Positions 12,859 through 17,691 of a DNA stretch of 64,000 bases are shown here, piece by piece (the stretch's first letter is position 1; the number at the start of each line of letters is the position of its first letter). The position numbers and the translations under genes were made by a program. Source of the stretch: a virus (taxonomy: Duplodnaviria; Heunggongvirae; Uroviricota; Caudoviricetes); IMG/VR virus record IMGVR_UViG_2703718777_000015; one strand, written 5' to 3'. The notes under the pieces were generated by a model, which was given only the letters and a program-made list of their open reading frames with translations, was not told the origin of the DNA and searched no databases.

Positions 12859-13490
12859 CCTTCACAGTTGTAATCACTACAGCCTTCAAAATCATATGGG
12901 CTGTACTGCCAGGTTATTTTTCCGCAATGCGGACAATTCCAACGCACCTTCCCGCTTCGCGACTTCTTTCTTCTGTTCTGCTCTTTCAACCAGTCAGGCA
13001 TGACCAAACCTGCGCCCTGAACCATTGTTCTGCGGTTAAAGTTATTGATATTGAACGTCCGGCGCTTTGCTGCATCAGCAATGGAAAATGGCAACCAAAC
13101 TATTCCTGGTTCGTTTTTGTTGGCGACGCTAAAGATGGTCGCTTTACTGAAGTCATCTGTTGGCAATCCACCGTGTTGAAGCCAGTAAACATCGTTGCCG
13201 TTCCAGCTACCTTTTTTGTAGGCCACATACGCAGTGCAATCTGACTCAATCGGGCTTTCTGTAGGGATGTACTGGCAATCAACGTGCCACACAGCCATTG
13301 CATCCACACTATCGGCACAAACAGGCTGATCGATATCTCGCCCACAATTCCAGGCTTTTTGGGCTTCTTCCAGCGTGTAAACATGAGCGCGATCGATATC
13401 AGAACTGTAACCATTGCCGTTATGGCAATGGAATGAGGCGTTATTACCCACAGTTTCACGCAAGCACATCATGTAAAAACGGTTACTCAC
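12846..13490 (-). CDS. hypothetical protein with C-terminal zinc ribbon
   Basis: 214 aa; CPHCG...C..YNC. Confidence 0.55.
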   Translation of the reverse strand: MSNRFYMMCLRETVGNNASFHCHNGNGYSSDIDRAHVYTLEEAQKAWNCGRDIDQPVCADSVDAMAVWHVDCQYIPTESPIESDCTAYVAYKKGSWNGNDVYWLQHGGLPTDDFSKATIFSVANKNEPGIVWLPFSIADAAKRRTFNINNFNRRTMVQGAGLVMPDWLKEQNRRKKSRSGKVRWNCPHCGKITWQYSPYDFEGCSDYNCEGWRE

Positions 13491-13698
13491 TGGATGCCTC
13501 CCAGCAAATTTGTCTTATATAAGAACTGTTAACGCGCTTTACTTTCCCGTCGAACTCCAGTTTCTTTAGACGACGCAAAACGTATGCCGTTTTGAGTGTG
13601 CGATATTTATCCCTAAGCCAGTTGGTCACGACGTAAGTCATACAGCGCCCGTGTTCTTCCAACACCCGAACTATTTCTTCGTCGGTTGGCTTGCTCAT
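13483..13698 (-). CDS. small hypothetical protein (71 aa)
   Basis: ORF with coupled overlaps. Confidence 0.45.
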   Translation of the reverse strand: MSKPTDEEIVRVLEEHGRCMTYVVTNWLRDKYRTLKTAYVLRRLKKLEFDGKVKRVNSSYIRQICWEASSE

Positions 13699-13916
13699 TT
13701 TGTCGCTCCTTCAGCTTTCTCTACTTTCGCTGCCATGATTTCCAGCTTTTGTGCTGCCGATGCCGCTAACCTGTGAAATTCTTCATCTGTTTCAACTGGA
13801 ATTGGTACAAACCTGACACCAATTTGAGCAAGGCTATGCGCCATTTCGAGACTTGCTCTTAACTCTGCTGGGGATGCTTTATTCAGGCCGACTTCCTCAC
13901 AAATAACAGATTGCAT
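13695..13916 (-). CDS. small hypothetical protein (73 aa)
   Basis: ORF with coupled overlaps. Confidence 0.45.
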   Translation of the reverse strand: MQSVICEEVGLNKASPAELRASLEMAHSLAQIGVRFVPIPVETDEEFHRLAASAAQKLEIMAAKVEKAEGATK

Positions 13917-13925
13917 ACGCTCGCC

Positions 13926-14651
13926 CTACTGAATACGCTCAAACTCGATTACCCACACCCAGGGATTAGCGTTCCAGCTTTCTTCACCATAGATGGATTC
14001 CCACAGGCGCTGGAACGCAACCTTGGCCATTGCGAAATCCCCCTTGGGAGTAAGGAATGTTCCCGGGTGATCAGGAAGCAAACTTCCAGCAGGCGGAACG
14101 CCCTCATCCCTTGCATCGCATTCGCTGATATTGTTCAACCGCTCAACGCGCACGTTGGTAATTTCCAACAGGATGCGTGATGCCCATCGCGGCATGTGAA
14201 TTGATGGACGCCACCCACCATCAAACTTTTCATTCACAGTGTGAGGTTTCCAGTCGGCATCATCGGGTATCGACCATAAACCGTAATCACCAGGCTTTTG
14301 CTCACAACTGGCCCGATAAATCCTTGCTGCGTTCTTCTCATCGCCACGACAAAGGTTGTCGTTCCAGTCCACACTGCAACCATCTTCATTGCCTAATATC
14401 GCCCATGTTTCACGAACCCAAATTCGATCGCCGACGATACCAAAGGGGCAATTGAAAACACTGCTTACACCATCAGCCCCGTACCACTGAAAACCTGCAC
14501 CAATTTCCCTAACCATCACTGGTGCTTCTGGACCAACTTCCGCAGGCTGATTTTTCATTATCCGCCGCGTCTGCGTTTTCCTTCCTTCGAGGATGGCTCG
14601 GACCATCTCATCGTTGAAAATCATGCCGCGCTCTTTCACTTCGCCTTTCAT
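13926..14651 (-). CDS. ASCH (PUA-like) domain protein
   Basis: N-terminal FNDEMVRAILEGRKTQTRR matches ASCH GxKxxxxR signature. Confidence 0.5.
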   Translation of the reverse strand: MKGEVKERGMIFNDEMVRAILEGRKTQTRRIMKNQPAEVGPEAPVMVREIGAGFQWYGADGVSSVFNCPFGIVGDRIWVRETWAILGNEDGCSVDWNDNLCRGDEKNAARIYRASCEQKPGDYGLWSIPDDADWKPHTVNEKFDGGWRPSIHMPRWASRILLEITNVRVERLNNISECDARDEGVPPAGSLLPDHPGTFLTPKGDFAMAKVAFQRLWESIYGEESWNANPWVWVIEFERIQ

Positions 14652-14660
14652 GCATCCCCC

Positions 14661-14746
14661 TTACCCATGCGCGACGATGCCGCCAAAAGTGATAGAGAAC
14701 AGCCAGAAATAGATCGCGGCCATAATGATTTTGAATGCCGTGTTCA
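14661..14746 (-). CDS. possible 28-aa hydrophobic peptide
   Basis: MNTAFKIIMAAIYFWLFSITFGGIVAHG with GGAG upstream; first ORF after a C1 operator. Confidence 0.25.
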
Positions 14747-14829
14747 TATTTTCAGCTCCTGTGATTGATTGGATACATGCCGCGCCTTGCGGCATGTTTT
14801 TATTTTCACTTTCTCTGTTTTAAAAATCA

Positions 14830-14846
14830 AGATTTATTAGAGCAAT
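14830..14846 (-). promoter_or_regulatory. C1 repressor operator (16/17)
   Basis: Minus strand ATTGCTCTAATAAATCT. Confidence 0.65.
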
Positions 14847-15352
14847 TACTGTTGATGGAGAAGCGCGTTTTCATACTCCCTGACCATTAACGTAAGTACG
14901 CCGTGACTCCTGAAAACACGCGCCACTTCAATCTTATCTTCCAGCGCGAACGCGATTTTACTTAGACCAATTTTCTTAAGGAGAGCAATCTTTGCTGGGC
15001 CGTCATTTCTGTCATCGGTGGCAGGACGCATAGATAGCAAAGGCTCAGCCCCGTTTGTTACGTGCTTACGCAACCAGGCTCGTGTTTTATCCCTGGCTAT
15101 CTCACAGCGCCCGGTTACAAACCAGACCGTGTAAACGTTAAATAACTGGCGCACCATATCAATAACTGGAGTGATGGGAGCATCAGTGTCACAGGCAAGG
15201 TTAAACTCGTTCCAGTGCTCTGTTAATGCACCTTTGCCAGGTGGTGGAAGCAAATGCAGCCTGTCTTCCGTTGCCTCTGATATCGTCCCATCAATATCGA
15301 CTATGACGATATACGGACGTTCCTGGTGTGCGTGTTTATTGAAAATACTCAA
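14846..15352 (-). CDS. HAD-superfamily phosphatase-like protein
   Basis: IVIVDIDGTISE (DxDGT motif I) near N-terminus. Confidence 0.55.
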   Translation of the reverse strand: MSIFNKHAHQERPYIVIVDIDGTISEATEDRLHLLPPPGKGALTEHWNEFNLACDTDAPITPVIDMVRQLFNVYTVWFVTGRCEIARDKTRAWLRKHVTNGAEPLLSMRPATDDRNDGPAKIALLKKIGLSKIAFALEDKIEVARVFRSHGVLTLMVREYENALLHQQ

Positions 15353-15425
15353 ATGCCCTCCTCATTGGACGAAAAAAATGCTGGTGGGACGCACTCCACC
15401 AGCATTAAAAGTGACACTGTAACTA

Positions 15426-16688
15426 TCAGCGAACGTAAATAGTGCCGCCGTTCTCTTTTTCCCATGCATCGCTACGTGCATAGCAAACATCGAGAAGTCT
15501 TCTTGCCGCTGTTTCCTCTAAACCCAATTCGACAACCAACTGCTCATGACGGCGGGTAACCACATCAAACAGGGTATGCAGCCCTTTATTGGCCAGTTCA
15601 TCAATGAATTCCGGTTCGAACGGTAGCTCTGCATCTGCCAACATAACCTCTTGCGCCCACTCGACACGGCGGACCAGTTCCGGGCGGCGGCTTTCCATCT
15701 CTTTACAGATCATTTCATGGAAGAACTCTACCCAACCTTCCGGCTGGAACTCGCGGAAAATGGCCAACGGCTGGAAGTTTGGCATCAACCATTCGTTGAT
15801 ACGTATATCAATGGCATAGCCCATGTCGCAGCAGAACTGATAAGCAAAGTCCAGCTTAGAAACGATATAAGGACGCTCGTTATTGAACTCTTTAGGCGAT
15901 GAGATCCCATAAGCCAGGAGGCGCGGGAAGAATGAGATTTGCCCTAACGTCGGATGGAGTTTGCTTGCAGGGAAACGGCGCTCAGTAATGCCATACATTT
16001 CCTTCTTGAGCGTCGCAAATTTGGCGTTTTCATTAACCAGCTCGGTAACCTCTGCTTTTTTATTAGCAAATGCCACGCGCGCCTCGCTTGCATCTTTAAT
16101 AGCCTTTTTGAGCTGTTGGTTAAGGTCGACAATCTGCTTACGCAGTTCCTGTCGCTCGCTTTTGGCTTTGTTATAGCGTTTCTCAAGGTTAAAAGGATCA
16201 AGTTTCATGATCTCTTTATATTGAGATTTTAGAGTTGAAATCTGTGAGTTCCGCAGCACAACCATCGCGGTCATTTCATTGAGTTTTGTTTCCAGCTCAA
16301 TGCTTATACGTTCGGCATTATCAGCACGCTGGTTGGCGTCATGCGTCGCATCTTCGATCGCGTCCTGTTGCTGGCGTTTCAAATGTTCAATTTCCAGCTG
16401 AAGCTCTTCAATTTCTTTACCCTTCAGACCGAGATCCAACTGCATATTTTCAGCTGCATCTACCAGGGAGTTATGGCTATCAGCTTCTGCGTTATAAACA
16501 TCAATAAGCTGTGCGTGAAGCATCTCCGCTGACTGAACCGCATTATCAAAAAAACGCGCTGTGAGGTCATCACAACTAACGCGGCGTTGCGCGGCTCGGA
16601 TGTTCTGGATAATGGCCGGGATACCGGCATTCAGGACATCAGGGATAGAAACATTTTCGATTGATTGGTTTTGTGCTGAAGTGCTCAT
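15426..16688 (-). CDS. hypothetical coiled-coil protein (420 aa)
   Basis: Central heptad-rich region; no recognised catalytic motif. Confidence 0.6.
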   Translation of the reverse strand: MSTSAQNQSIENVSIPDVLNAGIPAIIQNIRAAQRRVSCDDLTARFFDNAVQSAEMLHAQLIDVYNAEADSHNSLVDAAENMQLDLGLKGKEIEELQLEIEHLKRQQQDAIEDATHDANQRADNAERISIELETKLNEMTAMVVLRNSQISTLKSQYKEIMKLDPFNLEKRYNKAKSERQELRKQIVDLNQQLKKAIKDASEARVAFANKKAEVTELVNENAKFATLKKEMYGITERRFPASKLHPTLGQISFFPRLLAYGISSPKEFNNERPYIVSKLDFAYQFCCDMGYAIDIRINEWLMPNFQPLAIFREFQPEGWVEFFHEMICKEMESRRPELVRRVEWAQEVMLADAELPFEPEFIDELANKGLHTLFDVVTRRHEQLVVELGLEETAARRLLDVCYARSDAWEKENGGTIYVR

Positions 16689-16689
16689 T

Positions 16690-16908
16690 TCAAAGTTCCG
16701 TATTAGCTTGTGCTTCGGTCATTTTTCCTAAGTATGAAGGTGGAAGGACTACGCAATTTGTATCCAGTCCCTCACCTATGGCAGCCTGTAAAATTCTGGC
16801 TAAGGTGAGTCTCTTGTTGCGATACCTGGTGATGACATGCCTGATACCGCCGGTCGGCGTAACAAAGGCGATCAGCCAGTAGTGATATTTCCGTCGGAAT
16901 GGCCACAT
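16690..16908 (-). CDS. small hypothetical protein (72 aa)
   Basis: ORF 62 bp downstream of an operator; coupled to the 420-aa gene. Confidence 0.45.
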   Translation of the reverse strand: MWPFRRKYHYWLIAFVTPTGGIRHVITRYRNKRLTLARILQAAIGEGLDTNCVVLPPSYLGKMTEAQANTEL

Positions 16909-16916
16909 AGTGCACC

Positions 16917-16933
16917 TTATAGATTGCTCTAAT
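16917..16933 (+). promoter_or_regulatory. C1 operator-like site (14/17), plus orientation
   Basis: ATTGCTCTAATAAAAAA; may be part of the terminator A/T tract. Confidence 0.35.
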
Positions 16934-16958
16934 AAAAAACGTGATGAGTGTACATCAC
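16928..16958. terminator. bidirectional intrinsic terminator hairpin
   Basis: aaaacgtgatg-agtgtac-atcacgtttt flanked by A/T runs. Confidence 0.55.
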
Positions 16959-16965
16959 GTTTTAA

Positions 16966-16982
16966 AAATATGGAATTATTAG
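16966..16982 (-). promoter_or_regulatory. C1 operator-like site (14/17)
   Basis: Minus strand ATTGCTCTAATAATTCC. Confidence 0.5.
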
Positions 16983-16989
16983 AGCAATA

Positions 16990-17691
16990 TTATTCTGATT
17001 CTCGCTCAAAAAACGAGCTAATGAGGGGAAGCCAATCCTCTGACACTTCGCGAGGCCGCGGTTTGCCGTGGAAAAAGATTATTCGGCAGTCCTTTGGTAA
17101 TGCCCCATTCCCCCTGGAGTAACGCGCGCTCGCATATTTTGAACCAGGTTCCACAACATCGGCCTTGTAACTTACAAACCATCCTGGATACAGATCCTGA
17201 AATGCTGGTGTATCATCGCCCATAACCTTCCGTAAGAACCCCTGATCACCCCAGCACTCAGTAGTGACACAACGAGCAATCCAACCTTCCGGATCTTGCC
17301 AGAATGAACTCCAGATATGTGCTTTTACACTATTTGGTATCCACAGGGCACCGCTACCACGATATTGTGGATGGTAAAAATCCCTAAGCATGGTGAAGCA
17401 GGTTGGTGGATTCTCAAGGATTGGGCGTATATCACCGGCAATAACCGTGTCCAAATCCAGATAGAACAGATCATCGGTTATATCCGGTCGGAACAACTCG
17501 ATTTTCGCCCACCAGCCACGGCACTTTTGCCACTGGTTGATCAATGGGACAACTTTGACGCCAGGTACATGTAAACGCTTCAGGTCTGTCAGGCAAATAA
17601 TTTCATAGCCTTTTGGCAGTTGATTAACCAGCCACTGCACATCGGAAGCGTTATAGTCACCACCAGAGCGAAGAACTAAAGCAATCTTCAT
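16990..17691 (-). CDS. putative glycosyltransferase-like protein (GT-A-like DxD motif)
   Basis: [13 protein letters not shown] hydrophobic-DxD pattern; weak. Confidence 0.4.

Follow-up and report, generated by a model that had tools for sequence, protein, structure and literature searches.

A probable early C1-repressed pmgR-pmgS operon in a P1-type phage-plasmid and its compact intergenic control region

Results

We analyzed two adjacent genes and their flanking sites within a 64,000-nt stretch of viral DNA (IMG/VR record IMGVR_UViG_2703718777_000015; hereafter the window). On sequence grounds, the gene pair and three operators near it are already catalogued features of phage P1, and the DNA is that of a phage P1-type plasmid prophage. 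Positions 14700-17300 share 97.4% DNA identity with P1 over 2.6 kb and about 97.3-97.4% with P7. The features considered here are:

14830-14846, minus strand: Op88 (OpmgT), C1 consensus match; annotated in P1, pmgT promoters
15370-15406, minus strand: predicted strong intrinsic terminator of pmgR-pmgS, 11-bp stem with 6 G-C pairs, then U7
15426-16688, minus strand: pmgS (P7 shtB), 420 aa
16690-16908, minus strand: pmgR (P7 shtA), 72 aa; annotated in P1; PHROG 3177
16923-16939, plus strand: Op86b (OpmgRb), ATTGCTCTAATAAAAAA; C1 consensus match, annotated in P1
16936-16963, minus strand: hairpin, 11-bp stem pairing 16936-16946 with 16953-16963, loop 16947-16952; putative terminator or 3'-end hairpin of pmgQ transcripts
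16947-16952, minus strand: candidate -10, TACACT, coinciding with the hairpin loop; predicted start at about 16940, proposed from relatives
16970-16975, minus strand: candidate -35, TTCCAT, 17-nt spacer; 4-nt overlap with Op86a
16959-16987, minus strand: PpmgR as predicted in the P1 record, TTGCTC-17-TAAAAC
16972-16988, minus strand: Op86a (OpmgRa), ATTGCTCTAATAATTCC; C1 consensus match, control site of pmgR and pmgS in the P1 annotation

The sequence-only reading had called both open reading frames correctly at these coordinates, and its statement that neither protein carries a catalytic motif agrees with our searches, which found no catalytic family match in Pfam, NCBIfam or PADLOC. The P1 GenBank record (AF234172 / NC_005856) annotates pmgS, pmgR, Op86a, Op86b and Op88, and the gene order pmgQ-pmgR-pmgS-pap-pmgT is shared with P1. 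All genes lie on the minus strand for several kb, and no annotated or plausible plus-strand gene was found at the pmgQ/pmgR spacer in the open reading frame list or the P1 annotation. The pmgR stop and pmgS start codons are one base apart (TGAaATG), and pmgS is probably translationally coupled to pmgR. In P7 the same genes and operators are named shtA-shtB, Op(sht[a]) and Op(sht[b]); these names imply sheath functions, for which we found no experimental support and which conflict with the P1 knockout data described below.

The whole window was searched for the 17-bp asymmetric C1 consensus ATTGCTCTAATAAATTT, allowing up to three mismatches, and gave 10 matches against 0.4 expected, including an overlapping pair at 30539-30566. 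Op86a, Op86b and Op88 show 1, 3 and 3 departures from the consensus among them, and the window sites align to those of AF234172 and to their P7 equivalents. Being identical to P1 Op86a, Op86b and Op88, the three sites are, as judged from sequence, genuine C1 operators, as the earlier reading had proposed. Its further statement that the gene pair is bracketed by operators does not hold: Op88 serves the downstream pmgT promoters, and the unit ends earlier at the strong terminator, which together with pap separates pmgS from Op88. The literature searched contained no relevant match for Op86.

The two Op86 sites form a tight module. A 13-nt core, ATTGCTCTAATAA, is perfect in both, and the two cores make a perfect 13-nt inverted repeat. 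Op86a starts one base past the pmgQ stop codon (16990-16992), and the A-run of Op86b, read on the minus strand, gives the hairpin its U-tract. With centres 49 bp apart, the module spans 66 bp (16923-16988); the sites that had been placed at 16966 and within 16917-16982 thus exist, although those coordinates are off by a few bases. The core motifs TCTAAT and ATTAGA stand exactly 44 nt apart in 8 of 8 P1-like lineages. In a more distant lineage, with 28% PmgS identity, the operator sequence differs, yet a perfect inverted pair is again present upstream of the pmgR homologue; there the spacer is only 17 nt and has no hairpin.

The perfect hairpin reported between the operators was confirmed. Its 11-bp stem, with 4 of 11 pairs G-C, closes a 6-nt loop (-13.4 kcal/mol, z = -5.9), and it belongs to a set of nine perfect hairpins with stems of 11 bp or more in the window, against about 0.1 expected. 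On the minus strand U6 comes next (16939 down to 16934), and four of these residues can pair; our terminator scan makes no call here because the maximal stem absorbs the U-run. The hairpin is kept in 8/8 P1-like lineages, with compensatory changes in 5 of the 11 pairs and 96.8% of alignment cells paired. None of 500 shuffles equalled this pairing, a control that overstates significance for a set of eight mutually related lineages, and slid controls were 34-66% paired. By this covariation the hairpin is real and under selection.

The pairing is also biased towards one strand. Seventeen alignment cells are G.U; such pairs form in the sense RNA but would be mismatches in antisense RNA and in DNA. 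Across the seven non-P1 lineages, folding energies are -11.4 to -16.4 kcal/mol on the sense strand and -5.8 to -10.8 kcal/mol on the antisense strand, whose much weaker fold is due to the G.U pairs of the stem; the tail on the antisense side is rich in A. The sense U-tract is U6 in five lineages, the P1-type among them, and U5 in L006 (six of eight lineages with U5-U6). In L003 and L090 it has degraded to CUUGAUU while the hairpin is kept, and therefore termination is not the sole reason for keeping the hairpin. Because of the sense-only stability in relatives and the A-rich antisense tail, the element probably acts on pmgQ transcripts in one direction only, as a terminator or a 3'-end hairpin.

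The same loop position carries good -10 hexamers in relatives (TATCAT or TATTAT), and the positional homologue of the -35 is TTTACT or TTGATT with a 16-nt spacer. A promoter scan of these relatives returned TTTACT-16-TATCAT, TTTACT-16-TATTAT and TTGATT-16-TATTAT, each time with the -10 in the loop, as the sole promoter-like site on the gene strand and with a score of 9/12. In the window and in P1, TTCCAT-17-TACACT is weak and below the scan threshold, as is TTGCTC-17-TAAAAC, the promoter of the P1 record. The annotated -10 (TAAAAC) is not conserved in JK004, L006 or L003, the sequence there in relatives being TGAAGC or similar, and comparison with relatives suggests that the -10 of PpmgR in the P1 record is probably misplaced. 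A transcript start had been expected at 16966-16982, a stretch that is instead occupied by the operator and the -35 region; the start is predicted at about 16940, or at about 16952 with the annotated promoter. The literature searched yielded no transcription-start map of P1. A late (Lpa-type) pmgR promoter was considered and is unlikely, as no -22 box resembling AAGTTACTT occurs within 2 kb upstream of pmgR.

The two proteins differ in their knockout phenotypes. A pmgR knockout is non-viable, with heads and tails left unjoined, and is complemented in trans (PMC9024508); on the basis of this published knockout, PmgR is essential for head-tail joining. PmgR homologues occur only in P1-like elements, always directly upstream of pmgS. 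An in-frame pmgS deletion gives infectious phage and PmgS is missing from the virion LC-MS/MS list (PMC9024508), so these data do not mark it as a virion or morphogenetic protein. CRISPRi likewise found pmgS non-essential (PMC10695390), and in a set of 77 P1-like plasmids pmgS belongs to the 21 genes that are extremely conserved (PMC9603915).

PmgS matches the PHROG 1660 profile over residues 1-420 (E = 1.1e-192). It has a conserved N-terminal motif, helices at 41-157 and 166-232 (the break falls at Pro165, which hardly varies), an alpha/beta domain at about 233-345 with the conserved motif RINEWL.P, and a C-terminal (HhH)2 domain at about 353-412. This last is a five-helix domain with two helix-hairpin-helix motifs (Pfam HHH_5) of the RAD51-N / RNA polymerase alpha-CTD type, although the P1 protein lacks the canonical GIG hairpin motif (it has ELGLEE) and falls under Pfam thresholds. 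Some (HhH)2 domains, for example NusA AR2, bind proteins rather than DNA without sequence specificity. No structural match was found for the middle domain. An AF1548 match and the XPF-like layout, in which a nuclease precedes (HhH)2, had raised the idea of a PD-(D/E)XK nuclease there; this candidate was rejected, as the match aligns over the HhH part alone and a conserved D...(D/E)xK is missing. The ABC ATPase head with Walker A/B motifs of SMC / Rad50 proteins is absent, as is any Pfam ATPase domain, and the weak matches to SMC / Rad50 involve only the coiled-coil region (about 16 bits against cut-offs of 567-729). Hits to LmuB, JetC and SMC in PADLOC and NCBIfam (13-17 bits) were set aside as coiled-coil noise.

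Alignment of PmgS against viral and genome contigs gave almost only 97-98% identical copies, and the diversity of the family came from a search of encoding contigs together with phage and plasmid collections. Distant relatives occur without pmgR, and PmgS relatives adjoin RecT/Gp157, DarB-like, VRR-NUC and methylase genes. No part of the alignment of distant members was conserved enough for scanning, and the protein from a Pseudomonas phage had no relatives among viral contigs. In L097 pmgS looks like a pseudogene, but the genes around it are also split, so this is probably an assembly artefact.

Discussion

Our preferred reading, to which we assign a probability of roughly 0.7, is that this locus is an early C1-repressed pmgR-pmgS operon of a P1-type phage-plasmid, in which the 81-nt pmgQ/pmgR spacer would serve as a control region with four functions in 66 bp. 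Op86a, directly past the pmgQ stop, would overlap the -35 region; the sense RNA hairpin and its U-tract would end or stabilise transcripts of the pmgN-pmgQ operon; and the hairpin loop would act as the -10 of the pmgR promoter. With the -10 in the loop, pmgR mRNA would start in or just after the 3' arm, at about 16940, and would therefore exclude the hairpin. Op86b would lie over about +2 to +18, its A-run doubling as the U-tract. From the 44-nt core spacing and the position of the -10, we infer that in a lysogen two C1 monomers, at a fixed centre distance of 49 bp, would sit over the -35 flank and about +2 to +18 and obstruct RNA polymerase from either side of the promoter. Once C1 is inactivated, the operon would be transcribed up to the strong terminator at 15377-15406.

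Several known systems resemble parts of this arrangement. P1 itself differs in nothing material: its operator and hairpin sequences are identical to those of the window, with one base differing further on in the spacer, but its record marks no terminator at this spot and assigns the -10 to TAAAAC, not to the loop. Other multi-site C1 control regions of P1 include operators that are bivalent and overlap, and at the operators of the c1 gene C1 mediates looping. As in those other regions, two inverted C1 sites would act on one promoter; here, however, they are separate 17-mers with centres 49 bp apart, placed around a promoter and a hairpin. The sense stem-loop followed by a U-tract right after a stop codon recalls intrinsic (Rho-independent) terminators, from which it differs in its low G-C content (4/11 pairs), in a U-tract that is common to an operator and missing in two lineages, and in a loop that doubles as a -10-like hexamer.

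The hairpin and the promoter could be read in other ways. The sequence-only reading took the hairpin for a bidirectional terminator between operator-like sites, acting both ways as an insulator or attenuator. In the P1-type sequence the stem is fully Watson-Crick, so that both strands fold equally (-13.4 kcal/mol), and the plus strand has UUUU, only four residues, after a 7-bp core stem. We nevertheless regard this proposal as highly improbable: the antisense fold loses 5-8 kcal/mol in the seven non-P1 lineages and has an A-rich tail, and all neighbouring genes lie on the minus strand. "Insulator" is fair only as a separation of pmgN-pmgQ from pmgR-pmgS, and no sign of an attenuator was found, neither a leader peptide nor an alternative pairing of the usual kind. 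The hairpin might instead be kept mainly for DNA geometry, setting a rigid 44-nt spacing and a symmetry suited to two C1 monomers or forming a cruciform that presents the -10, with termination incidental. The invariant spacing in eight lineages, the loss of the U-tract but not the hairpin in L003 and L090, and the -10-like hexamer that always falls exactly in the loop would all fit, but the 17 G.U cells preserve pairing in sense RNA at the cost of mismatches in DNA, spacing alone does not demand compensatory stem changes, and the 28% lineage has its operator pair with a 17-nt spacer and no hairpin; we consider this explanation improbable. Alternatively, TTGCTC-17-TAAAAC may be the real promoter, with a start at about 16952 and an irrelevant loop hexamer; it was annotated by the P1 genome authors, and its -35, matching at 3/6 positions, lies inside Op86a, a common arrangement. 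Its -10, however, lacks the final T, relatives have TGAAGC or similar there, which is not a -10, and our scan finds it in no lineage, and we think it unlikely.

For PmgS, the names in the P1 and P7 records ("putative morphogenetic function"; ShtB, "sheath contraction") would make it truly morphogenetic, working with PmgR in virion assembly. Its tight coupling to an essential assembly gene in all P1-like lineages and its place among the 21 extremely conserved genes (PMC9603915) are consistent with such a role. Set against them are the infectious in-frame deletion and the absence from the virion list (PMC9024508), the CRISPRi result (PMC10695390), the (HhH)2 domain, the distant relatives that lack pmgR and sit beside RecT, VRR-NUC and methylase genes, and an early C1-controlled promoter with no late box, so that a part for PmgS in assembly appears rather unlikely. 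The "morphogenetic" label is thus doubtful because of the (HhH)2 domain and the relatives among early DNA-metabolism genes, and the "head morphogenesis" label propagated by PHROGs and RefSeq is likely wrong for this protein. Most likely, PmgS would act early in lytic growth by binding DNA or a partner protein, and it does not form part of the virion. It shares an (HhH)2 domain with the RAD51/RadA N-terminus, the RNA polymerase alpha-CTD and NusA AR1/AR2, but unlike them joins it to a long helical hairpin and an alpha/beta domain, and it has no ATPase, polymerase or KH/S1 module. Compared with the (HhH)2 domains of known proteins, the second hairpin motif of P1 PmgS is degenerate.

In conclusion, both genes and the three operators were already part of the P1 genome record when it was deposited, and nothing was new in the locus as first stated. 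The analysis is useful to the annotation and engineering of P1-type phage-plasmids in that the -10 of PpmgR is probably misplaced, that the intergenic hairpin is better annotated as a conserved, probably one-way RNA element, and that PmgS has a DNA-repair-type (HhH)2 domain and in other phages sits with early DNA-metabolism genes. That PmgS is a non-morphogenetic early protein acting on DNA or a host partner, and at the same time the control region a fused terminator-promoter, is a tentative combination that we put somewhat below even odds. Such a fusion may use the loop of the upstream operon's terminator as the next promoter's -10, held between two repressor monomers whose spacing does not vary. 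PmgS may be the P1 member of a family of early proteins from phages and phage-plasmids (about 120 clusters, 50% identity), whose members may each have a long helical hairpin with a conserved L-x-P apex, an alpha/beta domain and a RAD51-N / alpha-CTD-type (HhH)2 domain. Its target is possibly DNA or a host partner such as RNA polymerase, NusA or RecA, with a role in counter-defence or in plasmid-prophage biology; if true, an early role of this kind would explain the strict conservation of PmgS despite its dispensability in the laboratory.

Identity and extent of the pmgR-pmgS unit

We found 19 phage records matching window 14700-17300 over its full length at 95-99% identity (P1 97.4%, P7 97.3%). 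Annotated on the corresponding P1 segment (AF234172) are pmgQ, pmgR (72 aa), pmgS (420 aa), pap and pmgT on a single strand, with a predicted sigma-70 promoter, PpmgR; in P7 the pair is annotated shtA and shtB, with operators Op(sht[a]) and Op(sht[b]).

Features of the region (window positions; operators are C1 consensus matches with at most 3 mismatches)
15426-16688, minus strand: pmgS
16690-16908, minus strand: pmgR
16972-16988, minus strand: Op86a, now OpmgRa; protein_bind, C1 repressor, in P1; record note "controls expression of pmgR and pmgS"
16923-16939, plus strand: Op86b, now OpmgRb; protein_bind, C1 repressor, in P1
14830-14846, minus strand: Op88, now OpmgT; protein_bind, C1 repressor, in P1
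15377-15406, minus strand: strong intrinsic terminator (11 pairs, 6 G-C, then U7)

Both reading frames lie at exactly the coordinates assigned in the sequence-only reading, and its C1 operators are real: they match named P1 operators, and the window holds 10 sites at this threshold against 0.4 expected. Catalogued in the P1 and P7 records, and all already annotated in P1, the flagged features are a rediscovery of a P1-type phage-plasmid's known features. The proposal that C1 operators bracket the pair was not borne out, since Op88 overlaps the promoters of pmgT, the next operon (P1 record), and both pap and the strong terminator separate it from pmgS. Given these intervening elements, the pmgR-pmgS unit extends from the Op86 module (16923-16988) to the terminator, with Op88 outside.

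In window 14846-15406 (minus strand), the terminator and its U7 lie directly 3' of pmgS. The pap gene begins at a TTG codon (15352), 18 nt past the U-run and behind a GAGGAGG Shine-Dalgarno sequence; no site resembling a promoter turned up. The leader of pmgT has, between that gene and Op88, a G-C-rich hairpin (14775-14797) whose T-run is on the plus strand, against all local genes. The P1 record gives this segment 96-98% identity to sequence downstream of hsdR in EcoDXXI and plasmid R124/3, pointing to an acquired terminator. The ORF at the pmgT position has 241 aa versus 309 aa in P1, and the 73- and 71-aa ORFs downstream differ in length from P1 pmgU and pmgV; a published survey places this area (13483-14651) in a variable region of P1-like plasmids. 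Elsewhere, two overlapping C1 operator matches in opposite orientations (30539-30566) form a bivalent operator, unlike the separated Op86 pair.

A conserved one-way hairpin

The cores of Op86a and Op86b form a perfect 13-nt inverted repeat. Between the operators, hairpin 16936-16963 has a perfect 11-bp stem and a 6-nt loop (-13.4 kcal/mol, z = -5.9); counting it, the window contains nine perfect hairpins with stems of 11 bp or more, against about 0.1 expected. Seven of the others (8453, 25436, 37440, 40804, 48956, 49337 and 52634) presumably serve the P1-type genome as terminators or in some other regulatory role.

We compared the pmgQ/pmgR spacer across eight lineages, with PmgS identities to the window's protein of 50-98%: the P1 type, Cronobacter phage JK004, and the related loci L096, L098, L099, L006, L003 and L090 (Pantoea). 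The operator cores, TCTAAT to ATTAGA, are exactly 44 nt apart in all eight, and each has a hairpin with an 11-bp stem and 6-nt loop. In the ungapped alignment both sides change in 5 of the 11 stem pairs, with 96.8% of cells paired; slid controls gave 34-66%, and none of 500 shuffles was as good, a generous control given just eight lineages related to each other. Even so, the independent compensatory changes (A-U to G-C, G-C to A-U and C-G to U-A) would be hard to explain other than by conserved pairing.

A bidirectional terminator had been proposed here, acting as an insulator or attenuator. Relatives use G.U pairs: folding energies there are -11.4 to -16.4 kcal/mol for the sense RNA and just -5.8 to -10.8 kcal/mol for the antisense RNA, whose tail is A-rich; the perfectly symmetric stem is confined to the P1 type. 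The use of G.U pairs makes the pairing specific to the sense strand, which, with the weak antisense fold, argues against a bidirectional terminator and a DNA cruciform alike. The pmgQ stop codon lies one base ahead of Op86a, and the sense-strand tail 3' of the hairpin is U6 in five lineages, U5 in L006 and CUUGAUU in L003 and L090. Hairpin and U5/U6 tail would fit an intrinsic terminator acting on transcripts from pmgQ; given their tail, termination may be weak in L003 and L090. The hairpin and a putative insulating function between two operons stand, and bidirectionality does not. In a further locus, L097 (GCA_045575315.1, 1-3213), pmgS, pmgQ and ppp are all fragmented and Op86b has a 1-nt insertion; the split genes most likely reflect an indel-rich assembly rather than gene decay.

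The pmgR promoter

A promoter scan found none in the window's pmgQ/pmgR spacer and, on the gene strand, one site each in JK004 (TTTACT-16-TATCAT), L006 (TTTACT-16-TATTAT) and L003 (TTGATT-16-TATTAT), in all three with the hairpin loop as the -10 hexamer. The homologous sequence is TTCCAT-17-TACACT in both the window and P1. The P1 record's -10, TAAAAC, is not conserved: relatives have TGAAGC-type sequence aligned with it. From these two observations, the working -10 is likely the loop (16952 down to 16947), displacing TAAAAC. Transcription of pmgR would start at about 16940, within the 3' arm or where the U-run begins, so that its mRNA would lack the hairpin; Op86a would span about -48 to -32, overlapping the -35, and Op86b about +2 to +18.

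In the more distant L005 (PmgS 28%, pmgR homologue 36% identical) the operator-like sequence differs, and a perfect inverted pair, AAGATACTAATTTAT-N17-ATAAATTAGTATCTT, lies upstream of the pmgR homologue; by this comparison, paired inverted operators are an old feature of the promoter. No Lpa-type late box was found near pmgR, which argues for early, C1-controlled expression.

PmgR and PmgS

Deletion of pmgR in P1 leaves <100 PFU/mL, with tails and incomplete heads in lysates, and is complemented in trans (PMC9024508). PmgR homologues are restricted to P1-like elements, invariably directly before pmgS, and both genes belong to a set of 21 that are extremely conserved across 77 P1-like plasmids (PMC9603915). 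Phage with an in-frame pmgS deletion are infectious and behave normally towards restriction, PmgS is absent from the virion LC-MS/MS list (PMC9024508), and CRISPRi scored pmgS as non-essential (PMC10695390).

PmgS itself matched no Pfam family at threshold. AlphaFold modelling (pLDDT 73 for the whole of PmgS and 79 for its C-terminal half) places helices at 41-157 and 166-232, broken at a nearly invariant proline, then a three-stranded alpha/beta domain and a five-helix C-terminal domain. A profile from 56 family members matched the RAD51 N-terminal domain (E = 7.5e-8) and alpha-CTD (9e-7); 17 of the 56 match Pfam HHH_5 at E <= 0.01, member P0029 alone passing the gathering score. An exhaustive search found 122 clusters (50% identity) sharing the architecture.

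Outside the P1 group, the gene follows RecT and Gp157 in Pseudomonas phage 15G, and DarB-like, olxA, VRR-NUC or cytosine-methylase genes on Citrobacter and E. coli plasmids of 85-92 kb and on metagenomic contigs. These neighbourhoods are all non-structural and lack pmgR. In several phage-plasmid families the PmgS-like gene is preceded, at a distance of a few genes, by a giant DarB-like methylase/helicase gene, olxA and, often, a gene for a VRR-NUC nuclease (L101 1-6179, L092 1-5302, L005 1-9287, L006 1-6263). This recurrent setting is an early or anti-restriction neighbourhood. Given the knockouts, the (HhH)2 domain and these contexts, PmgS is probably an early protein that binds DNA or a partner, and its 'morphogenetic' label is without evidential basis.

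In conclusion, our analysis adds to the P1 annotation a conserved one-way hairpin, a -10 likely relocated into its loop, invariant operator spacing, and for PmgS an (HhH)2 domain and a non-structural gene context.
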